Below are positions 1,301-22,250 of a stretch of DNA of 26,051 nucleotides, in pieces. The notes below the pieces were generated by a model. It ran no database searches. It was not told the DNA's origin and saw nothing but the letters and a program-made list of their open reading frames with translations. The stretch is from a virus (taxonomy: Duplodnaviria > Heunggongvirae > Uroviricota > Caudoviricetes). The translations under genes were made by a program, and so were the position numbers. Location of the stretch: positions 1 through 26,051 of IMG/VR virus record IMGVR_UViG_3300015186_000011. One strand, given 5' to 3'. Positions within the stretch are counted from its first letter, which is position 1, and every line of letters starts with the position of its first letter.

Positions 1301-1329
1301 TTGATACTGTATAAACATACAGTTATTGC
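1301..1329 (+). promoter_or_regulatory. SOS-regulated promoter: TTGATA-17-TATTGC with a LexA box filling the spacer
   Basis: TACTGTATAAACATACAGTT at 1305-1324 is CTGT-N8-ACAG and matches 17/20 of the LexA consensus TACTGTATATATATACAGTA. It sits 20 nt upstream of the ATG at 1344. Confidence 0.7.
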
Positions 1330-1343
1330 ATGGAGAAGATAAG

Positions 1344-1601
1344 ATGCAGCAGTATCACTATCCACTGGAAGACGGATTTACCGAAAGGATTCACACGCCG
1401 GGAGGCGTCAGATCACTAGTGGAGGGATCGCACTTGATGAAATTACTCCGGGATCTCGATAAGGATGGATTTAATGTCGATGGCCCACTTGCCGAACTGA
1501 CTGCACTGATTAACTACGTCACCAGCTCACAGATGTCTATGCAGGATCTGCAAACACATCTCGACTATTGTGCCGAACAATTACGAAAGCAAACCAGATA
1601 A
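1344..1601 (+). CDS. 85-aa stand-alone homologue of the C-terminal domain shared by the two antirepressors; candidate SOS-inducible antirepressor or modulator
   Basis: ATG at 1344 with GGAG at 1332-1335 (the track's TTG start at 1326 has no RBS). The sequence YHYPLEDGFTERIHTPGGV..LMKLL..L.KDGFNV.G..AELT....Y......L.D.QTH..Y aligns by eye at ~35-40% identity with the last ~80 aa of ORFs 1915-2607 and 3858-4802. Confidence 0.65.
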   Translation: MQQYHYPLEDGFTERIHTPGGVRSLVEGSHLMKLLRDLDKDGFNVDGPLAELTALINYVTSSQMSMQDLQTHLDYCAEQLRKQTR

Positions 1602-1639
1602 GGTTTGCAATTACCAAGCGGAGTGCTTATATTTACCTT

Positions 1640-1762
1640 TGCGGTAAATTTACATCGCACTCCTCTTGTGCCATAGTAATCGAGCACTGGCAAAATCCAG
1701 TGCCGGGATTGGTCTCCCGGATTACTACAGAGGCACATATGCCGCATAAGCGGTTTTTTTAT
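1640..1762 (+). ncRNA. Candidate ~120-nt sRNA, or a structured 3'UTR of the upstream gene
   Basis: Promoter-like TTGCAA (1604-1609)-18-TATATT (1628-1633). Dyad TTACC-N5-GGTAA at 1633-1647. Hairpins GCACTGG/CCAGTGC (1684-1703) and CGGGA/TCCCG (1704-1719). Weak terminator CCGC-ataa-GCGG plus T7 at 1742-1760. Only implausible ORFs overlap it. Confidence 0.3.
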
Positions 1763-1914
1763 GTGTAAAGCGCACCTATTCTATGGTGGGCTGTGTGGGG
1801 GCACCGAAAGGTGCGCCGGGTTCCTTTGTAGCCGGTAAGACCAACTCTGCACAGTTCACCACCATCTGATTGGTCTCAGCGGTGGTGATTAACCTAACTA
1901 CAAAGGTGATCGCC

Positions 1915-2607
1915 ATGAATACCAAACCTTCCATCTTTTCCTTTGAGTCATCCTGCCAGATCCGTATGTTCATGATTGACGGAGAACCTTGGTTTGTCAC
2001 CAAAGATGTGTGCAATGCTTTGAATATTGATGTTACACAAGCGAGAAAACTTGATAAAAAAGGCTGGAACAAAAAGGGGCTGTATTCAATACAGACCCCT
2101 GGTGGAATACAAGAACTATCCATCGTTTCAGAATCAGGTCTCTACATCCTTATTCTGCGTTGCAAAGAGGCAATGACTGAGGGAACGAGAGCATTCAGAT
2201 TTCTTGAATGGGTTACAGGTGAGGTTCTTCCTCAGATCCGCCGCACCGGAAGTTACATTAAAAACTCGCTCCCGCAGGAAGAACGCATAAAGATGGTTGC
2301 CGACCAGGTAGCCAACGCCACGGCGTCAGCAGTGATGCAGGCGATGAAGATAGAGAACAAAACCTACAGTGCCCCACTGAAGCCCGGCTACCGCAGCCTG
2401 ATTCATTCGCCGTCTGGTGTTCTCGGCCTGACGGAGAACTCACTGCTGATGAATTTGCTGAACAAGTTACAGGAAGACGGGCACGATGTATCGGGCGCGG
2501 CAGCGGAGCTGACCACCATGTTCTGCTACATCGTCGGTGTGAGCAAATGCCTGCGTGATATCCAGACGCACGCGGAGTACATCAATGACAAGGCAGGGTT
2601 CTTCTGA
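1915..2607 (+). CDS. BRO-N domain antirepressor-like protein (230 aa) with the shared C-terminal domain
   Basis: ATG at 1915 preceded by AAGGTG. The N-terminus SIFSFESSCQIRMFMIDGEPWFVTKDVCNALNI...GGIQELSIVSESGLYILILRC...AFRFLEWVTGEVLPQIRRTGSY is the classic Bro-N pattern. The C-terminal 78 aa are nearly identical to those of the Ant homologue. Confidence 0.85.
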   Translation: MNTKPSIFSFESSCQIRMFMIDGEPWFVTKDVCNALNIDVTQARKLDKKGWNKKGLYSIQTPGGIQELSIVSESGLYILILRCKEAMTEGTRAFRFLEWVTGEVLPQIRRTGSYIKNSLPQEERIKMVADQVANATASAVMQAMKIENKTYSAPLKPGYRSLIHSPSGVLGLTENSLLMNLLNKLQEDGHDVSGAAAELTTMFCYIVGVSKCLRDIQTHAEYINDKAGFF

Positions 2608-2630
2608 CGGGCGGCGGCACATGGATGTGC
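2374..2630. repeat. Left arm of a 257-bp inverted repeat (partner 3835-4091)
   Basis: By-eye alignment with the reverse complement of 3835-4091 shows about 11 mismatches and no indels. It covers the last ~78 codons, the stop and a GGCACA-n4-TGTGC hairpin. Nearly all differences are synonymous (one K/Q change). Confidence 0.9.
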
Positions 2631-2692
2631 CTACAATTATCAATAATTGTTTACACTCGTTGCAGTTAAAAGCATTATACTCATGTTTAAAA

Positions 2693-2707
2693 TTACCCGA
2701 TTGGTAA
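2693..2707. promoter_or_regulatory. TTACC-N5-GGTAA dyad (site E) upstream of the cassette genes
   Basis: TTACCcgattGGTAA lies 22 nt before the ATG at 2729. A possible TTTACA (2650-2655)-17-CATTAT promoter lies upstream. Confidence 0.4.
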
Positions 2708-2728
2708 AGTCGATTGGTTGAGGTTCAT

Positions 2729-3055
2729 ATGAGCAGAAGATATGTCAAGGAGCTGGCTATAGAGTCTGGCACCCCTTTGGGTATCGTTCCTGGCTCCAAC
2801 TATGCCAAGGCTTTAAACCGAGACTCTGTCGTCAAAGTTATATCAAGAGACATGAATATGGTCGGAGACGATCTCAGACGGTCAGAAAATCGTGTTTATG
2901 CTGAATATATAGTAAAGAACGGAAAAAAAATTGCAGCGCCTGCTGGCGGAAAATGGGCAATAGTGACAGGGAAAAACTCAAATGCAAGAGGAAAACCAGA
3001 AGCTAAAGGAATGTCCTTCGACAAATATGCAAAAATCTATTGGGCAACCAAGTGA
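2729..3055 (+). CDS. Hypothetical 108-aa basic protein, first gene of the cassette
   Basis: ATG at 2729 with GAGGT 5 nt upstream (the track's start at 2714 lacks an RBS). I recognise no family. The C-terminus is Lys-rich. Confidence 0.55.
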   Translation: MSRRYVKELAIESGTPLGIVPGSNYAKALNRDSVVKVISRDMNMVGDDLRRSENRVYAEYIVKNGKKIAAPAGGKWAIVTGKNSNARGKPEAKGMSFDKYAKIYWATK

Positions 3056-3530
3056 TAACGAAGAAACTGAGTTCGAGGAAGTTGAGGAAGGGCTAAGTAA
3101 CGAGATCATTCAACACCCAGATGCCTTCACAAGAGTTCTTGATCGCCCTGAAATTCAGGAGATAGTTGTCGCTCACCATGCGTTTCAGGGTCCGCTTCCT
3201 CCCCCCTATCTGCTTCGCGGGTATCAGGATATTTTACCTGATGCCCCCGAACGCATCTTCCAGCTGACGGAGAAGGAGTTTGCTCACCGCCAGAAAATGG
3301 AGGAAAAGGCACTTGACGGGGCTATTAATAGAGATAAACGTGGGCAGTGGTTTGGCCTGAGTGCAACTATTTTTACAGTAGCTTGTGCAACATTATTAGG
3401 TTTAACAGGTCATGAAGTTCTAGCTGGCACAGTGATCGGTACAGTTGTTGCAGTGGCTGGTATTTTTGTTCTCAGACAAAAACCGAGCTTAAAGAAGAAC
3501 GCTGAAGATAAAACACCAGAAGAAGAGTAA
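2982..3530 (+). CDS. DUF2335-like membrane protein (start ambiguous: 2982 or 3027)
   Basis: An acidic N-terminus is followed by HHAFQGPLPPPYLLRGYQDILPDAPERIFQLTEKEFAHRQKME and two C-terminal TM helices. From memory this is the DUF2335 signature. It overlaps the upstream ORF in another frame. Confidence 0.7.
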   Translation: MQEENQKLKECPSTNMQKSIGQPSDNEETEFEEVEEGLSNEIIQHPDAFTRVLDRPEIQEIVVAHHAFQGPLPPPYLLRGYQDILPDAPERIFQLTEKEFAHRQKMEEKALDGAINRDKRGQWFGLSATIFTVACATLLGLTGHEVLAGTVIGTVVAVAGIFVLRQKPSLKKNAEDKTPEEE

Positions 3531-3551
3531 GCCCGCGACGCGGGCTTTTTT
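3531..3551 (+). terminator. Rho-independent terminator
   Basis: GCCCG-cgacg-CGGGC followed by TTTTTT, immediately after the stop codon at 3528-3530. Confidence 0.85.
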
Positions 3552-3623
3552 GTGGGCGAAACAAAAGTCAGTGCTACACTCATTGACGCCACATTGAGGT
3601 GGTTTATAGATGGAAATTTCACA

Positions 3624-3785
3624 ATGAAAAAAGCATTTGCTGCACTGTTCGTTTTGTTGTCTCTGGTAGCTTCAACTCAGGCCTTTGCCGGTCGTTGTCA
3701 GCACGACAGCGACACTGCTGCTGACGGCTCCCGCTGCGGTGGGCGTTCTGCGGATTCCCGCCCGGGCGGCGGTGGCATTCGTTAA
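3624..3785 (+). CDS. Small secreted peptide (53 aa) with a signal peptide
   Basis: MKKAFAALFVLLSLVASTQAFA|GRCQHDSD...: a typical Sec signal with an AFA-G cleavage site. The mature ~31 aa carries 2 Cys and a Gly-rich tail. TTGACG (3583-3588)-16-TATAGA lies upstream. The track's ORF start at 3552 is unlikely. Confidence 0.5.
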   Translation: MKKAFAALFVLLSLVASTQAFAGRCQHDSDTAADGSRCGGRSADSRPGGGGIR

Positions 3786-3790
3786 AAACA

Positions 3791-3808
3791 AGGCCGCGAA
3801 AGCGGCCT
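3791..3808. terminator. GNRA-loop hairpin terminator between convergent genes; the U-tract is on the minus-strand (ant) side
   Basis: AGGCCGC-gaaa-GCGGCCT. The minus-strand transcript would continue as UUGUUUUUA. There is no U-tract on the plus strand. Confidence 0.7.
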
Positions 3809-3820
3809 GTGACATGTCAC
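3809..3820. repeat. 12-bp perfect palindrome GTGACATGTCAC (site 1 of 3)
   Basis: Exact copies occur at 22255-22266 and 24520-24531. This one abuts the terminator hairpin at 3791-3808. Confidence 0.9.
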
Positions 3821-3834
3821 GATAGTTTCGTTTT

Positions 3835-4091
3835 GCACATCCCTGTGCCGCCGCCCGTCAGAAGAACCCTGCCTTGTCGTTGATGTACTCCGCGTGCGTC
3901 TGGATATCACGCAGGCATTTGCTCACACCAACGATGTAACAGAACATGGTGGTCAGCTCCGCCGCCGCGCCCGATACATCGTGCCCGTCTTCCTGTAACT
4001 GGTTCAGCAGATTCATCAGCAGTGAGTTCTCCGTCAGACCGAGAACACCAGACGGAGAATGAATCAGACTGCGGTAGCCGGGCTTCAATGG
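3835..4091. repeat. Right arm of the 257-bp inverted repeat (partner 2374-2630)
   Basis: See the left arm. It covers the 3' end of the ant homologue plus ~23 nt beyond its stop. Confidence 0.9.
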
Positions 4092-4802
4092 ATAACCATA
4101 ACATTTTGTCTGTGTTTTAATTGCCTCACGAAGCGCATCTAACATCTTGACTGCCACTTCATCATTCTCTGATGCAGATCCAGCAGGGAGATACTCCCCT
4201 TCAAGCGGAACCCGAGCAACAAGAGACAACGCTTCGGCAAATTGATCTTCACCAATTTCTTTGTACGAACAGCCAAAATGAGATTTCAGTGACGACCACA
4301 TGGTGATCATCGCCTTAGCCTGTTTTTCTTTTGGCAGAGACTGACCGCGACTCATGACGAGTTGTTTAATGGCTTCCTGCTGTTCAGTTGTTATTTTACC
4401 CGGCAACGCCTTTTTAGCTTTGCGTGGGTTAACCACATGGCCTTTAGTCCAGTACTCGTAGAGCACATCGTCACACTCTTCCTGATACTGGATTACCTTG
4501 TCGCGGATTTCAGGGCGGACTTTGTTAGGGCTGATGGTTTGCAGCCAACCTGCAAGTTTGCGTAAAGCAAGACAGATAACCAGACGACGCTGAGTATCAC
4601 CGGGGAGCTGAATGGTCATTTCGACCATGCAGCTCTTAAAGCGTTGTTGCAACTTGCGGAACTGCGTTTTCCAGTCCAGCCCCATACCTTCAACGACTGG
4701 TTTCATTGGGGTGTATGGTTCGCCGTTATGATTGACAACATAAAGCTCTGCGCCGTGGAATGGCACGTTGATAGTAGATACCGCTGTTGCTATACTCGTC
4801 AT
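3858..4802 (-). CDS. ant: Antirepressor, P22 Ant-type N-terminal domain (314 aa)
   Basis: VPFHGAELYVVNHNGEPYTPMKPVVEGMGLDWKTQFRKL...LRKLAGWL fits the P22_AR_N pattern from memory. It sits directly downstream of an Arc-like gene and opposite an Mnt-like gene, as in P22 immI. Confidence 0.85.
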   Translation of the reverse strand: MTSIATAVSTINVPFHGAELYVVNHNGEPYTPMKPVVEGMGLDWKTQFRKLQQRFKSCMVEMTIQLPGDTQRRLVICLALRKLAGWLQTISPNKVRPEIRDKVIQYQEECDDVLYEYWTKGHVVNPRKAKKALPGKITTEQQEAIKQLVMSRGQSLPKEKQAKAMITMWSSLKSHFGCSYKEIGEDQFAEALSLVARVPLEGEYLPAGSASENDEVAVKMLDALREAIKTQTKCYGYPLKPGYRSLIHSPSGVLGLTENSLLMNLLNQLQEDGHDVSGAAAELTTMFCYIVGVSKCLRDIQTHAEYINDKAGFF

Positions 4803-4877
4803 GTCGTTAATTCCTATACGTAGTTTTACGATACTGAAGCCCTGACGGTCTGGCCACCGTGGGGCTTCGCTGTTTTA
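4803..4877 (+). ncRNA. sar-like antisense RNA (~70 nt) covering the ant RBS and the arc-ant spacer
   Basis: A strong promoter, TTGATA (4768-4773)-17-TATACT (4791-4796), lies inside the first ant codons and points the other way. Predicted TSS is ~4803. A terminator hairpin at 4836-4868 is followed by GCTGTTTTA. Geometry and size mirror P22 sar. Confidence 0.5.
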
Positions 4878-5042
4878 TGCCACGCTATTCTTCTCACCAG
4901 TGAGTCCATACACTTTCCTCAGCTGATAGATAATCTCTGTATTGAACTTTCGGCATTCTTTTTCGCCATTTCTTTCAATAGCTAACTTCACATCGTCCGG
5001 AAAACGAACTCGTCGTTGACACATCTCTTTTGCTTTTTGCAT
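4875..5042 (-). CDS. arc: Arc-like ribbon-helix-helix repressor (55 aa)
   Basis: ATG at 5042 with AAGGAG 7 nt upstream (the track's start at 5063 lacks an RBS). RVRFPDDVKLAIERNGEKECRKFNTEIIYQLRKVYG parallels P22 Arc (FNLRWPREVLDLVRKVAEENGRSVNSEIYQRVMESF). Confidence 0.75.
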   Translation of the reverse strand: MQKAKEMCQRRVRFPDDVKLAIERNGEKECRKFNTEIIYQLRKVYGLTGEKNSVA

Positions 5043-5132
5043 TTCATATCTCCTTAGCCCCACCGTGGGGCAAAATAATTGTCACACCGTGCGTCATTGA
5101 TGTCAAGCACACGGTGAGGCATACTTCAATCA
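5043..5132. promoter_or_regulatory. Divergent overlapping promoters with RHH operators (Pant-like / Pmnt-like)
   Basis: Minus strand: TTGACA (5106-5101)-17-GACAAT (5083-5078). Plus strand: TTGATG (5097-5102)-17-CATACT (5120-5125). A 15-bp palindrome GCCCCAC-C-GTGGGGC sits at 5057-5071, at the predicted +1 of the ant promoter. CACCGTG (5085-5091) and CACGGTG (5110-5116) each lie in a promoter spacer. Confidence 0.6.
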
Positions 5133-5162
5133 TTGCAAGTAACTCAATATTTGGTGAAGAAC

Positions 5163-5594
5163 ATGAGCAGAGAAGATCCACAACTAAGGATCAGACTTCC
5201 CGTTGAAGTAAAAGAAAAAATAGAAATTTCTGCAAAAGCCAATAAGCGATCAATGAACGCTGAAATAGTACAACGTCTTGACACCAGCTTTCTGAAAGAT
5301 ATTCATGAAGATGACGTAATTTCTGCTTATGAAGCAAAAATTATTGCAAACAATGCACGACATGAAATATCAAATATTATTTTCAAAAGAACCTTTAATG
5401 AAATTAATAAGAAAATAACACTTGGACATACAAGTTTTTATATAAACCTTAATGACCTTGAACTGGAATCACTTGCAGATAATGATTACCAGATCATCTT
5501 TGAAAAAACATTTAATAAGCTCAATGAACTAGGTTACATCATCTGTGAAAACTCATGGGATGCAGATGGTTTTGGAATTGAAATACCTGAATAG
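5163..5594 (+). CDS. mnt: Mnt-like RHH repressor with an extra AT-rich C-terminal domain (143 aa)
   Basis: MSREDPQLRIRLPVEVKEKIEISAKANKRSMNAEIVQRL aligns with P22 Mnt MARDDPHFNFRMPMEVREKLKFRAEANGRSMNSELLQIV (from memory). The ATG at 5163 follows GGTGA. P22 Mnt is only 83 aa, so the last ~90 aa are additional. Confidence 0.8.
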   Translation: MSREDPQLRIRLPVEVKEKIEISAKANKRSMNAEIVQRLDTSFLKDIHEDDVISAYEAKIIANNARHEISNIIFKRTFNEINKKITLGHTSFYINLNDLELESLADNDYQIIFEKTFNKLNELGYIICENSWDADGFGIEIPE

Positions 5595-5605
5595 GAAGAA
5601 CAAAA

Positions 5606-5632
5606 GGCGTGTACATATTACACGTCTTTAAT
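5606..5632 (+). terminator. Hairpin terminator after the mnt-like gene
   Basis: GGCGTGTA-catat-TACACGTC (8 bp including one GU pair) followed by TTTAAT. Confidence 0.55.
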
Positions 5633-5684
5633 ACAATTGAAAAACGCCACATTACTGATGTATGTTACAACAAGGAGCGATATT

Positions 5685-6248
5685 TTGAAAACCATATCTA
5701 TATTAAAGGTTGCATTAGGCGTCGCTATTATTTTGACTCTCTCAATATTGTTTTATTTTTACCACAAAAAAACTGCTATTGCTCTTGATGGTCACGCGGC
5801 AAACTCATTTTTCTCAGAGTACATAGTGCCGCTATCAGGAAGCGGTATAACAAATAAATATACTGACTATGACATCAAATATGGAATTGATGATGGGGAG
5901 ACTATTGTATTACATGTAATCATTAAAAACCTAATGACAGTAAATAAAAATACAGACTTCAACGATAAAAATACAATACATCACAACAACAGCAAAACAT
6001 TAATTTCTTATAGTAGCAACATCTATACGGATAAATACCTAAAATACATATCAGAAGATACAATAAAAGAAACCCGCGAAAAGTTAAAAAACATATATTG
6101 TGCATCCGGCAGTTTTCACAAATTATCGCCGCAAGAGCGTTTATTCTACGAAGCAAGAAAACAACGTAAGTCAATAATATTACATTATTATGCTGATTCA
6201 GGGGAGTCACTCATATTTAATATTGGGGTTTCCCCTGAATCATGCTAA
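5685..6248 (+). CDS. AT-rich N-terminally anchored membrane protein (187 aa from TTG 5685; 196 aa from ATG 5658); SieA-position moron
   Basis: AAGGAG at 5672-5677 lies 7 nt before TTG 5685, giving MKTISILKVALGVAIILTLSILFYFYHKK (a signal anchor). The ATG at 5658 and the TTG at 5637 have no RBS. The region is visibly low in GC compared with its flanks. I recognise no family. Confidence 0.6.
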   Translation: MKTISILKVALGVAIILTLSILFYFYHKKTAIALDGHAANSFFSEYIVPLSGSGITNKYTDYDIKYGIDDGETIVLHVIIKNLMTVNKNTDFNDKNTIHHNNSKTLISYSSNIYTDKYLKYISEDTIKETREKLKNIYCASGSFHKLSPQERLFYEARKQRKSIILHYYADSGESLIFNIGVSPESC

Positions 6249-6259
6249 AGGTGTTTAAC

Positions 6260-9200
6260 TCACCGCATCACCGGATCCACCTGGTTTATTAGTGGCGCAA
6301 TCCAGAACAGGTTATTGCCGGGTATCAGGGTTCGGACATTATGCACAATACGATCACCGGCATCACCATTCAACACTCCTGCGGTCACATCAATGATGCT
6401 ATCCGCAAGACCAAATGACGGTCCGAATAGAGATCCTACGAATCCACGACTGGCATACCTAGACTGTGTGCCAGTGCCAAATAAAGCCCCCAGCCCAACA
6501 GCACCACCAGTAGCCTTTTCAGCCATGTTGTTATATTCCATCAATGGCCCAAGAATACCGGATCTATCTATACCCTCAAGCACCAGCTTCTCTGGTGACC
6601 AGTCAACATTTTTCCCTTTCGATGCTTCTTTAAGCGCATAGACCAGTGAGCCAAGAGCAATCTGAAATGCAGTGCCATAATAAAATTGCGCAGTTCCTTC
6701 CTGTAACCCACCAAGTAGCGCACGGTTGTATGAAGCCGTTGTGAATGATTTAAACTGAAATATCGTTCGCCCCATTGGAGTACTCGCCCATAAAGGTGTG
6801 TCACCAATACCGGGGGTGATGATAGTGTTATTAACGTCTTTCAGAACCGCTGACTGGAATACTCCGGCAACGTACTGATCGTCCCATTTATCAAAGTTAC
6901 CAATGTGCCATCCATCAATTACCTCACCATGTTTCTCGAACTCACTGCGAATACGCGCAGCCATATTGTCGTTGATACCGAGTTTTGCCATGCGACGTGC
7001 AGAAAACGCACCAGACAAAATACCGTCTGACGTGAGCATTCCGTTCATGGATTTGTTTATGTCATTAAATCGATCCATGAGTGTCAGCTTGCCGAAGGCA
7101 TCAGTAATTCGCTCCATTCCTGCTTCGACTGCTGTTGTCCTGGAAGAACTGTCAACAAGATCACCAATTGCACGAGAACGTGAATGTAGTACAGTTTCCA
7201 ATCCAATCCCCATCTTCAACATCTCTTCTTTGCTGGCCTTAAATGCCGGTGATTGGGATATCTGAGAAGCATAGCCTTTCATGGTGTTACGGAAACCATT
7301 AACCATAACCCCTCTGGCCAGATCTGGAATAGCTGATACTGTCATTCCACCGAGTTTGGTCGTGAAGTTCACATCCCGCAGAAAAGCGCCAGCACGAACA
7401 AAAAACGAAGACGGGTCATCAGGCATACCATATGTACCAACAAGACGATCGCGTAATGCTGTTATGTCTCTGAGATCATTTGCTCTTGATTTTGAAAGTC
7501 TGGACTGTTCTTTCCGTAATTCCTTTTCGTACTTTCGCATTAATGAATCGAGTTTACCCTGAGGAACAACTTCACCATTGCTCTCATAACGTGCTTTCAG
7601 ATTTGCCACACTTTCGTCATATTTCGCCTTTATTTTTTCAGGCACTTCCCGTAACAGACTGTCATATTCGTCCTCAATTAATTGCAGACGCTCAGTCATA
7701 GTTCGTTTGCCAAATGTTCTCGTCAACTCAATTTCTGCTGCCGCTTCACGGATATGACGTTGCAGCACGTAATTCACATCACTTTCAAGATAATCCCTGA
7801 TAAGACTATCAGGAACATTTAATGTTCTTTCTTTCGTACTACCTGCGGCTTTTACAGAAAATACGCTGACAAAATCCTGTGGAACCTTAGCACCAGTAAT
7901 TTTATTAATTACGATATCCGCTGCAATTTCAGCATCCTCAGGATCCAGTGTTTTATTGCCTCTCGACCACCAGTCAACCAAAATACGTCGAAATTTATCG
8001 CGTTCACTGATTATTTTTCCAACTTTATATATACGTGGAAAATAGCTTGCCTGGCCTAATGCTTTCAGTTCTTCATCTGGCGGTAATAAACCAAGCTTTT
8101 GCATTTCAACCTTCACCCGATTTAATACAGTTCGCATCGCCTGCGCCGTTTCCTGAACAACAGGATTAGCATGCACATCACCGCTTCGCATAGCATTCCC
8201 AACCTGCTGACGAAATGAATCAAAACTCATGTCGCCACCATCAGCTTTATACTTTGCGTATGCCTGTTTATTTCCGACAACAACAGCAGCTTCTTCACGC
8301 TGCCATCCACGTGTACGGGTTTCTACAGCTACCGGTGTTTCAATCCCCCTTTCATTTCCTTTAAGGGTGAAATTATTTTCGGCTAACTCCAGCGTTGTTT
8401 TTCGCACTGTCTTGGACGGAGACTCCATTAACCTTGTCAAAGGAGTAAGATAGCTCCCTGCTTTCCATGCAGCCTTTCCAACCCACCCACCGGAAACAGG
8501 GGTTAAATCATCCAGAGTCGCTGTATCAATTTTCATAGCACCAACACTACCACCATCAGAAAGCGAAGCGGCAGCCCTGTCAGTCGCTGATGTAATGCTC
8601 ATATTATCAAGAGCATCAGCAACCTCACGCGTGGCTGCAGCCCGGACGGATGGCGAAAGCGCAACACCAGCACTGGCAAACACGCCGCTCATCATCGCAC
8701 CCGCTGCAACGTGAGCGGCACTTTCACCCCATGAGCGTGTTATTTGCTGATTATTCAGCACAACCTCGCTTAATGCTGTACCGGCAGCACCAATCGCAAT
8801 CTGTGAGCCAATACGCGCCAGTGCCCCTCCTTGAGCACCGGGGATAAACATTGACGCAACAGTAACCGGATCCATTCCCGCAGCAATACTGGCAAGAGTT
8901 CCAACTACGCCAGCATCAGACAATAAACGTCTGTCTTCATTTTCATCATCTATCTGCTGCTTAATCCACGCCGTTTCCTCTGGCGATCGGGAATCTGCAA
9001 ATTTCGCCCCCCAGTATTCATAACCGTGCAACTCATTTTTATCAGCATATGGGTTATAACCTTCGACCGGTTCAAACTGTCTGGCTGGTCGGAAAAAACC
9101 AGCCAGAATATTGTTCTGTCGCATTGCAGCCCCCCATACGGAAGGCTCCGGTGGCAATGGCTCAGGATTAGCCCCTTCCGGAAGGGCAACATCAAACCCA

Positions 9201-18977: not shown

Positions 18978-19274
18978 TCACTCCTGTTCACTGGCCTCTT
19001 TGGCCATCTTCAAATACTGTTCAGGGCAATGCGCCATAACGCGCTGAAACAGTTCCAGCGCCAGATTGCGTTGCCCCTCATTAAATGCCATTGCCATAGC
19101 GTCCATCGGTGAGATAGCGGAAAACACACGGCCTTTCTCCAGCACCGACCAGACAACGCGACGCCCCTGTTCACTGCTCATGACAAAGCGAATGTCATCA
19201 ATTTCACGCTGTGCCATGTCACGTTGTTTACGGGCGTTTTCTTCTTTCAGTTGATCATCTTCGTAATCTGTCAT
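18978..19274 (-). CDS. Small conserved head-module protein (98 aa)
   Basis: ATGA overlap with the portal stop (19274-19271). Charged helical protein of unknown function. Confidence 0.7.
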   Translation of the reverse strand: MTDYEDDQLKEENARKQRDMAQREIDDIRFVMSSEQGRRVVWSVLEKGRVFSAISPMDAMAMAFNEGQRNLALELFQRVMAHCPEQYLKMAKEASEQE

Positions 19275-21598: not shown

Positions 21599-21675
21599 GT
21601 GGCATTAGCTCAGTTGGACAGAGCAACCGCCTTCTAAGCGGTTGGTCGCAGGTTCGAATCCTGCATGCCACGCCA
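21599..21675 (+). tRNA. tRNA-Arg (anticodon UCU, reads AGA), CCA encoded
   Basis: Hand-folded cloverleaf: acceptor GTGGCAT/ATGCCAC, D arm GCTC-AGTTGGAC-AGAGC, anticodon arm ACCGC-CTTCTAA-GCGGT, variable loop TGGTC, T arm GCAGG-TTCGAAT-CCTGC, discriminator G, CCA. Confidence 0.95.
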
Positions 21676-21718
21676 GAATCACGCCTAAGGACCGTGATAC
21701 CAGAAGTTCCAGGTGCTT

Positions 21719-21760
21719 GGCGGTGATGGTTTCCCTTGAAGGACTATCACCGCCCTTTTT
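21719..21760 (+). terminator. Rho-independent terminator T1 after the tRNA
   Basis: GGCGGTGAT (21719-21727) pairs with ATCACCGCC (21746-21754), with an inner TCC/GGA extension, followed by CTTTTT. Confidence 0.75.
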
Positions 21761-21838
21761 ACAGCAGGACGCCATTGCGATGACTTCATGCTGTAAACCC
21801 GTACAGCCACGGAAGGCAGAACTCATTGCTTCCAGTTC

Positions 21839-21862
21839 GCCCGGTTCGCCGGGCATTTTTTT
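21839..21862 (+). terminator. Rho-independent terminator T2, 16 nt upstream of the next start codon
   Basis: GCCCGG-ttcg-CCGGGC followed by A and T7. Confidence 0.85.
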
Positions 21863-21878
21863 AAGGTGAGATTAGACT

Positions 21879-22250
21879 ATGAGTGACAAAGACATTGAAT
21901 CTGAAATTCAGGCTAAAGGTTTAGCCGCGCCGCGCGTTACGCCAGACCATATCGAGAGCATTATTGCTCAGGAGGCATATTTCACAGCAGAAGATGGTGT
22001 CTTTGGCGTAGCCATAAAAGCGAAACATACTGGCGGAGAGGTAAACTACCAGCCGCACGAATCACTTTCTCTGCTGACTTTCTGCGTTCTGGTGCTGCGC
22101 AACGGCTTCACCGTCACCGGAGAGAGCGCCTGTGCAAGCCCGGAAAACTTTGATGCGGAAATTGGTCGGAAGATTGCCCGGCAGAATGCTGTAAACAAAA
22201 TCTGGATGCTTGAAGGTTACTTGCTGAAGCAGAAGTTAAGCGAGCAATAA
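21879..22250 (+). CDS. Gp49 / Sf6 gp66 family phage protein (123 aa), function unknown
   Basis: LTFCVLVLRNGFTVTGESACASPENFDAEIGRKIARQNAVNKIWMLEGYLLKQKL is the family signature as I remember it (Phage_gp49_66). RBS GGTGAG lies 8 nt upstream. Confidence 0.8.
   Translation: MSDKDIESEIQAKGLAAPRVTPDHIESIIAQEAYFTAEDGVFGVAIKAKHTGGEVNYQPHESLSLLTFCVLVLRNGFTVTGESACASPENFDAEIGRKIARQNAVNKIWMLEGYLLKQKLSEQ

Follow-up and report, generated by a model that had tools for sequence, protein, structure and literature searches.

An inverted repeat between convergent antirepressor genes, and the cassette inside it, in a viral locus related to Escherichia coli Uetakevirus prophages

The viral DNA studied here (IMG/VR record IMGVR_UViG_3300015186_000011, Caudoviricetes, positions 1 to 26,051), whose full 26,051 nucleotides (nt) we call the window, carries a cassette of three small genes enclosed by a 257-bp inverted repeat at positions 2374 to 4091. 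What is the repeat for, and what does the cassette between its arms do? A previous reading, made from the letters alone and called here the sequence-only reading, proposed that the repeat could let the cassette invert and that the cassette could be an uncharacterised exclusion or defence module. We think it probable that the repeat is a by-product of domain sharing between antirepressor genes, and that its interior is one slot of a modular accessory-gene hotspot.

The antirepressor domain shared by the two arms

When recomputed, the arms (2374-2630 and 3835-4091) were reverse complements over 257 nt with 11 mismatches and no indels, in agreement with the sequence-only reading, and a repeat search detected a weaker extension to 292 nt at 91% identity (2339-2630 / 3835-4126). 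The edges of the homology are sharp: it begins at the PLKPGY codons and stops 23 nt past the stop codon, beyond which the sequence is either a promoter side or a terminator side. Each arm is the 3' end of an antirepressor gene, headed by a Bro-N domain on the plus strand and by a P22_AR_N domain on the minus strand, as had been claimed. Ten of the mismatches fall within the 77 shared codons (nine synonymous and one K/Q) and one in the 23 nt 3' of the stop codon. Because nine of the ten codon differences are synonymous, both arms appear to be under purifying selection, and the earlier claim of selection at the protein level holds. The repeat was found in several complete genomes, and we therefore do not attribute it to faulty assembly.

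The genes that carry the domain, with the two arms, are as follows (aa, amino acids).

1344-1601, plus strand: free-standing Ant of 85 aa, orthologue of the anti-repressor (Ant) of phage SPC32H (PDB 5d50_E, E 4.1e-47; phrog_450, E 9e-48)
1915-2607, plus strand: BRO-N-headed antirepressor with a C-terminal domain of the SPC32H Ant type (Pfam Bro-N, E 1.7e-13; residues 149-225 match 5d50_E)
2374-2630, plus strand: left arm, made up of the final 77 codons with their stop and the next 23 nt
3835-4091, minus strand: right arm, the other copy of the inverted repeat
3858-4802, minus strand: P22_AR_N-headed antirepressor with the identical type of C-terminal domain (Pfam P22_AR_N, E 2.9e-45; residues 233-309 match 5d50_E)

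Both arms matched PDB 5D50 chain E, the SPC32H anti-repressor (E 1.3e-13 for the BRO-N fusion and 7.5e-14 for the P22_AR_N fusion). Since SPC32H Ant is a Rep binder, this match indicates that the arms are an antirepressor effector domain and not arbitrary 3' ends, and the C-terminal domains of the two fusions are predicted from their sequences to be Rep-binding domains of the SPC32H Ant type. The free-standing Ant is a third, diverged copy of the arm domain, with ~43% identity to it. In the P22-type antirepressor, Pfam showed nothing beyond P22_AR_N and no match to P22_AR_C. Altogether four types of head are joined to this Ant tail, namely BRO-N and P22_AR_N in the window and ORF6N and AntA in relatives. 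The Rep-Ant antirepression system of SPC32H (PDB 5D4Z/5D50) was reportedly described by Kim & Ryu in 2013 and by Kim et al. in 2016.

The Ant of SPC32H forms a tetramer that binds two Rep dimers and disrupts the DNA-binding Rep tetramer (PMC9638917; PMC9986798). Overexpression of the BRO-N fusion orthologue of phage ZX5, which has this arm and the cassette in common with the window, lowered lysogeny a thousand-fold (PMC9782041). The rep gene lies outside the window; the nearest complete relative, TL-2011b, encodes a Rep homologue (42% identity, E 5e-53).

Each of the three domain-bearing genes is accompanied by regulatory elements of a different kind.

1307-1322, plus strand: LexA box CTGTATAAACATACAG, a perfect CTGT-N8-ACAG 5' of the free-standing ant
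1684-1760, plus strand: isrK-like RNA (Rfam RF01394, 74.7 bits; gathering score 50)
1779-1866, plus strand: C4 antisense RNA (Rfam RF01695, 78.6 bits; gathering score 45)
4804-4871, plus strand: sar antisense RNA opposite the arc-ant junction (RF00262, 44.8 bits; gathering score 43)
4875-5042, minus strand: Arc-like small repressor (phrog_228, E 3.4e-5; annotated as an Arc-like repressor in TL-2011b)
5163-5594, plus strand: Mnt/Arc-family ribbon-helix-helix repressor, divergent from arc-ant (Pfam Arc, E 1.1e-14)

The LexA box in front of SPC32H ant is identical to that at 1307-1322. The isrK-like and C4 RNAs form a leader of the P1 immI type ahead of the BRO-N antirepressor, where the Rfam match to the a1/b1 C4-target RNA stayed under the gathering score (37.9 vs 46.7). 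The sequence-only reading had recognised the two antirepressor types but missed the SPC32H Ant fold, the third copy of the domain and the three RNA regulators.

In the explanation that we propose, three antirepressor genes would end in, or consist of, one predicted Rep-binding domain with the SPC32H Ant fold, each gene having its own control: the LexA box for the free-standing gene, the isrK/C4 leader for the BRO-N fusion and the mnt-arc-sar module for the P22_AR_N fusion. The BRO-N and P22_AR_N fusion genes face each other, and the 257-bp inverted repeat would arise because these convergent genes end in one common domain.

The post-stop tail of the domain has features of its own. Directly 3' of the BRO-N ant stop, we read from the sequence a small hairpin (GGCAC-ATGGAT-GTGCC, 2616-2631, plus strand), which has no U run and whose pairing is preserved in diverged loci by an A:T to G:C compensatory change. 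As a separate observation, the 10-nt string CGGGCGGCGG occurs in this tail (2608-2617) and again at the 3' end of the 53-aa gene of the cassette (3763-3772); in the prophage of MS 196-1 (L004, 5849-6016) it is the joint that fuses a copy of this gene, now encoding 55 aa, to a second cargo cassette.

Recombination and inversion across the arms

The exchange of arm sequences was analysed with 24 arm copies and 25 biallelic informative sites, giving 300 site pairs, of which 100 failed the four-gamete test. Mean arm distance was 9.3 within a genome and 9.1 between genomes. Since these two distances are equal, the arms seem to be drawn from one freely recombining pool, and concerted evolution of the two arms through within-genome conversion was rejected on the same figures. 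In the proposed explanation, the Ant-coding segment would serve as a stretch of homology for swapping heads, tails and cargo between phages.

Long arms with 96% identity could also be crossover sites for programmed or frequent inversion, and the flip would then be a phase-variation or shuffling device with a phenotype. A flip keeps both reading frames, as the sequence-only reading had foreseen, and relatives encode RecT and exonuclease VIII. A search with a synthetic inverted window identified one complete genome, MS 196-1, while the native arrangement was found in three. In MS 196-1, the BRO-N arm joins the exact terminator-side sequence that trails the P22-type arm of the window, and an ORF6N arm joins the promoter side of p108, the first cassette gene; these are the junctions that inversion predicts. 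A single inversion between the arms is most simply invoked for this sequence arrangement. It should be noted that the arrangement is unique to MS 196-1 and that its un-inverted form was found in no genome searched.

Population-level counts argue against inversion as a regular event. The P22_AR_N arm was followed by the palindrome-terminator in 27 complete E. coli genomes, vs none in which it was followed by the p108 promoter or by the YafO cassette of TL-2011b, these being the only two cargo types covered by the inverted-junction searches. Ten of 11 viral and metagenome contigs were likewise canonical. The exception is the draft contig L053 (IMGVR_UViG_2740892230_000001), in which a P22-type arm is joined, through a chimeric arm, to the YafO cassette in an orientation inverted relative to TL-2011b. 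However, only 37 nt of the second arm are present before this contig stops, as is typical of an assembly tangle, and it represents either a real crossover or an assembly mis-join.

Sequence content points the same way as the counts. Profile scans found no recombinase domain in the open reading frames (ORFs) at 1344-6248 or in ten large structural ORFs, and the other genes of the window are syntenic with structural genes of SPC32H, which upholds the earlier statement that the window has no invertase. No short crossover sites were found, and the arms are ordinary coding sequence for a solved protein domain. Moreover, a flip would be of little consequence, since the cassette brings its own promoter and only one residue distinguishes the arms. 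Switches of the Hin/Gin/Cin type have both orientations in common use, a pattern not seen across public genome assemblies. Programmed or frequent inversion is therefore the least credible of the accounts considered here, and the invertible switch entertained earlier does not survive the junction counts. From the available sequences, inversion happens rarely, if at all, and the locus looks like a recombination hotspot with no sign of a switch. Under the domain-sharing explanation, inversion over the arms would be possible, harmless and rare, and would have no designed role.

The cassette, its putative operator and its cargo

The cassette genes and the signals around them are listed below (TM, transmembrane).

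1633-1647: operator dyad TTACCTTTGCGGTAA, abutting the -10 of a promoter-like site (1604-1633) at the head of the isrK/C4/BRO-N ant unit
2633-2650: perfect 18-bp palindrome ACAATTATCAATAATTGT, after the arm end and at the -35 edge of the cassette promoter
2666-2693, plus strand: promoter-like site of the cassette, TTAAAA-16-TAAAAT
2693-2707: operator dyad TTACCCGATTGGTAA, TTACC-N5-GGTAA, overlapping the -10 and the start of the cassette promoter
2729-3055, plus strand: p108, a basic protein of 108 aa with pI 10.0 (phrog_10654), constant partner of DUF2335
2982-3530, plus strand: DUF2335 inner-membrane protein (PF10097, E 1.6e-15, 57.2 bits, cut-off 25), its start possibly at 3027
3529-3553, plus strand: intrinsic terminator 3' of the DUF2335 gene, predicted at 3529-3547 with a T run
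3624-3785, plus strand: p53, a secreted-type peptide of 53 aa with a signal peptide and two Cys in the mature part (phrog_14503)
3783-3820, minus strand: palindrome GTGACATGTCAC (3809-3820) with a GGCCGC hairpin and a T run, the backbone terminator module that ends the P22-type ant

Nearly all elements of the cassette described by the sequence-only reading were recovered, namely a basic 108-aa protein, an overlapping DUF2335-like protein and a 53-aa signal-peptide product with two Cys, as well as the dyad, the plus-strand terminator with its T run (placed at 3531-3551) and the palindrome. However, the hairpin at 3791-3808 had been taken for a cassette terminator; since its T run is on the minus strand, it terminates the P22-type ant instead. 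The same palindrome-terminator module closes the late operon in SPC32H. Separately, the 12-bp palindrome GTGACATGTCAC recurs at 3809, 22255 and 24520, and at 19211 with one mismatch; its copies sit at the ends of transcription units and just 5' of the small terminase gene, and syntenic copies are present in SPC32H. The palindrome ACAATTATCAATAATTGT occurs once in the window and is conserved in a class of relatives whose p108 is only 70% identical. No terminator was found between the BRO-N gene and p108, so that read-through into the cassette from the C4-controlled unit is likely.

The DUF2335 protein has an acidic N-terminal part, a GPLPPP..HR..RGQ core in the alignment and two TM helices, with hydrophobic segments at about 123-142 and 145-165. 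The p108 family, which has a conserved N-terminal motif and a C-terminal FDKYAxLYWATK, is narrow: 19 matches were obtained among 1.8 billion representatives, of which about six clusters are real. The many large repetitive proteins in the full HMMER scan for p108 proved on inspection to be compositional matches and were set aside, leaving the ~six clusters of small proteins. Distant homologues of p108 (35-44% identity) are always encoded just upstream of a DUF2335 gene and overlap it. The overlaps between upstream and downstream genes range from 1 to 74 nt and the pairing is kept in distant lineages; DUF2335 genes at still greater distance are preceded and overlapped by a short ORF with part of the p108 N-terminal motif. 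Conservation at the protein level, proposed earlier as a check, is thus borne out in unrelated contexts.

The DUF2335 cluster is present on at least 1000 contigs. Among 32 viral contigs found through the DUF2335 protein, 26 were close relatives of the E. coli type, and in nearly all of those reaching far enough upstream, p108 and DUF2335 lay directly 3' of an Ant-domain gene, whether free-standing, BRO-N-fused or ORF6N-fused. Counted over the surveyed loci of the E. coli type, this placement holds for 28 of 32, and the remaining four are contigs that start within the cassette or have no usable match upstream. In a lambdoid prophage, the whole trio lies between the Q antiterminator and the lysis genes with the dyad upstream there too, and its p53 copy has a conserved mature part and a diverged signal peptide. 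The earlier suggestion of mobility agrees with this recurrence and with the promoter-like site and terminator that the cassette carries. The trio forms an accessory unit that is conserved and portable.

The slot between the arms belongs to a variable region. The window region is similar in sequence to E. coli prophages and to phages of the epsilon15 / phiV10 / TL-2011b group (Uetakevirus). At its left end is a minus-strand tail fibre gene, of which the window includes the 5' part, and from 6260 rightwards the minus strand encodes ejection, tail, capsid, portal and terminase genes, so the locus fills the gap that separates the late-operon end from the tail fibre gene. This gap is ~5 kb here, and the equivalent gap of SPC32H holds only a gene for a 46-aa membrane protein and an 86-aa ant gene; the remaining genes of the window are structural and syntenic with SPC32H. 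Cargo replacement between the same arms had been named as a check, and it is seen in relatives: TL-2011b has a 59-aa gene and a YafO-family toxin in the slot, other relatives have a different 108-aa gene and another YafO toxin, and further occupants are a 55-aa + 146-aa pair, a 210-aa gene, and two cassettes in tandem. At least five cargo types are found between common flanks, in line with the earlier placement of the cassette in a variable slot of an immunity region. In ETEC1749 (L046), both convergent antirepressor genes are followed by the identical promoter-operator (4544-4640 and 6020-6120); the inverted repeat is thus ~90 bp longer than the arms, and two different cargo pairs converge on a shared terminator.

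The dyad TTACC-N5-GGTAA occurs at six sites in the window against 0.39 expected (1253, 1633, 2693, 21262, 24409 and 24427), located 5' of the free-standing ant, at the isrK/C4/BRO-N promoter, at the cassette, 5' of a unit with a tRNA and a moron, and 5' of the small terminase gene. SPC32H has 18 dyads vs 0.53 expected, three of them in the rep-cro gap and three just 3' of rep; TL-2011b has ten, with the same layout around its Rep homologue as in SPC32H. At the cassette, the dyad starts at the final base of the promoter -10, and the C4-ant unit and the YafO cassettes of relatives have -10 and dyad in the same arrangement. The half-sites are retained with differing spacers in four diverged classes of the p108 upstream region. 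Among ~45 Ant-domain genes from ~35 loci, what usually comes after the stop codon is either a promoter with the operator, at a distance of 31-92 nt, or a terminator, which is mostly the palindrome-terminator module. Three diverged loci show neither operator nor terminator within 170 nt 3' of the Ant-domain stop.

Based on the distribution of sites, TTACC-N5-GGTAA is a putative phage-wide operator for Rep and/or Cro. Since the dyad abuts the cassette -10, repression of the cassette in lysogens is implied, and the cassette is probably repressed in that state. Under the domain-sharing explanation, an Ant-domain stop would usually be followed by an operator promoter driving the next module, or by a terminator; the interior of the repeat would comprise a promoter-operator, the p108-DUF2335 pair with its terminator, and a separate gene for the small secreted peptide. 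The operator would be bound by Rep (or Cro), and the cassette would be silent in the lysogen and switched on together with the antirepressors upon Rep inactivation or fresh infection. We suspect, with less assurance, that the basic protein acts jointly with the membrane protein, perhaps like the toxin-antitoxin (TA) type pairs that replace them in relatives, and the layout, with a small first gene that overlaps the second and a pairing that is conserved, is indeed like that of type II TA systems. If so, the p108-DUF2335 pair would be active at the membrane in the early lytic phase, either to take over the host or to exclude a second phage; such a membrane-directed role for the cassette is our guess.

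In P22-like phages, sieA lies in the interval from the ejection genes to the gene for the tail fibre. The cassette occupies the same place, which suggests a superinfection-exclusion or defence moron expressed in the lysogen, in which a membrane protein and a peptide made by the prophage would block incoming phages. The cassette has its own promoter-like site and terminator, the PHROGs category of both DUF2335 and the peptide is 'moron', the slot is variable with toxin-type cargo in relatives, and p53 has a separate promoter-like sequence, read from the sequence, with no operator. However, the cassette promoter has the dyad over its -10 and start, and the repressor control that this implies argues against constitutive expression in the lysogen and favours a role at derepression or early infection. 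The PADLOC 2023 profiles gave no significant match for the three cassette proteins or for ten alternative cargo proteins. A ZX5 lysogen carrying the cassette was unchanged in growth, stress response, biofilm and virulence, the traits covered in that study (PMC9782041). A lysogen-expressed form of the exclusion module that the sequence-only reading put forward as a candidate is therefore unlikely, given the putative phage-wide operator at the cassette -10.

Database searches gave few further clues to function. NCBIfam returned nothing for any cargo protein, PDB sequence searches with p108 and DUF2335 gave chance-level matches only, and for the cassette as a whole the Pfam, NCBIfam, PADLOC and PDB sequence searches found nothing beyond DUF2335, with no homology of DUF2335 to known toxins in Pfam or PDB. 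A 'DUF2335 phospholipase' listed among type VI secretion effectors in papers was judged to be a slip for DUF2235, and irrelevant here.

The dyad may alternatively be the autoregulatory operator of the cassette itself, bound for example by p108, in a self-contained, TA-like addiction module that acts independently of the phage repressor. The dyad accompanies the trio into the lambdoid context and into locus L042, p108 is small and basic with its gene overlapping the downstream gene as antitoxin genes do, and YafO toxin pairs fill the same slot in relatives. However, SPC32H, which has no p108, still carries its 18 dyads, most densely around rep; the identical dyad is borne by YafO cassettes whose upstream genes are unrelated; and in L049, a distant p108-DUF2335 pair, the promoter lacks the dyad and bears another inverted repeat. 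We give this account only a small chance.

Several points weigh against the explanation that we prefer, a repeat formed by domain sharing around a Rep-controlled slot. The fused C-terminal domains are only ~43% identical to the free-standing Ant, and their binding to Rep is predicted from homology. The assignment of the operator to Rep follows from the distribution of sites, with rep lying outside the window, and the promoters are consensus matches (9/12). The lambdoid copy of the trio (L039) and locus L042 also carry the dyad, which may then be an element of the cassette and not of Rep; this is countered by its presence at unrelated YafO cargo and by the 18 sites of the cassette-free SPC32H. 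The AlphaFold2 models of p108 (pLDDT 41.8) and of DUF2335 (all-helical, pLDDT 59, pTM 0.23) were too poor for a fold search, and the absence of inverted junctions applies to the two cargo types named above. A stronger version of the explanation, in which the trio is a new repressor-gated phage-conflict system (exclusion or abortive) that fires at repressor inactivation, and the Ant segment is a dedicated site of exchange at which Uetakevirus-like prophages swap and now and then flip such modules by means of their own RecT and exonuclease, seems to us decidedly unlikely.

If the domain-sharing explanation is true, one small prophage routes SOS/LexA, an antisense-RNA switch and a P22-type Mnt/Arc/sar circuit into one Rep-binding domain, with interchangeable two-gene cargo parked behind each antirepressor under the operator of the same repressor. 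This gives a testable picture of the shuffling of antirepressor heads, tails and cargo in E. coli prophages, and it removes the more exciting idea of an invertible switch. The widespread and uncharacterised p108-DUF2335 pair and the conserved secreted peptide are candidates for functional study.

Two other parts of the window were noted in passing. The region 5101-6300 has low GC (31-36%) and contains the Mnt-like gene and a 203-aa ORF (5637-6248) with no Pfam match and a weak TIR-like (ThsB) PADLOC hit (E 0.006); this ORF may be a second, separate moron. Within the structural region, 21599-22250 on the opposite strand holds a tRNA-Arg(tct) and a gene of the N4 gp49 / Sf6 gp66 family, and this unit is preceded by an operator-bearing promoter-like site.

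Comparison with known systems

The proposed three-input antirepressor design and Rep-operated cargo slots appear to be undescribed, as variations on known themes. The closest of these is the Rep-Ant system of SPC32H, a Salmonella Uetakevirus, which has the orthologous free-standing gene with its LexA box, the fold encoded by both arms, the position between the late operon and the tail fibre gene, and the distribution of operator dyads. Unlike in SPC32H, which has neither fusions nor the cassette, the window also has the domain in fusions with BRO-N and P22_AR_N heads (ORF6N and AntA being further heads in relatives), and each fusion is separately controlled.

The locus resembles P22 immI (mnt-arc-ant, sar) in its divergent pair of Mnt-like and Arc-like genes, its P22_AR_N head and the sar RNA at the arc-ant junction, but its P22-type Ant has the SPC32H-type domain in place of the usual C-terminal part, with no P22_AR_C match. 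As in P1/P7 immI (C4-icd-ant) and Gifsy-1 isrK-anrP (PMC4825925), a BRO-N-type antirepressor is preceded on its coding strand by isrK-like and C4 RNAs. In contrast to P1/P7 immI, the a1/b1 target match is below gathering and the promoter in the window carries the phage operator dyad.

The Mu G and P1 C segments (Gin, Cin) also have inverted repeats inside coding sequence, where inversion would swap C-terminal parts. The present locus differs from them in that no invertase was found, the arms are 257 bp long and near-identical so that a swap alters at most one residue, and one orientation dominates public genomes. With type II YafNO it shares, in relatives, slot cargo with a YafO_toxin domain downstream of a small overlapping gene; however, the cassette of the window has no YafO domain, and the upstream partners in relatives are unrelated to YafN.

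Temperate phages have accessory and defence hotspots, such as those of P2/P4 and the lambdoid Q-S morons. The locus is like accessory hotspots in that variable cargo with its own promoter and terminator lies between conserved flanks, and the trio itself is found at the lambdoid Q-lysis moron site. Unlike at defence hotspots, no cargo of the window or of its relatives matches a known defence family. Unlike at other accessory hotspots, the conserved flank is a segment encoding a protein domain, present in both orientations, and the cargo promoters bear the putative operator of the master repressor.

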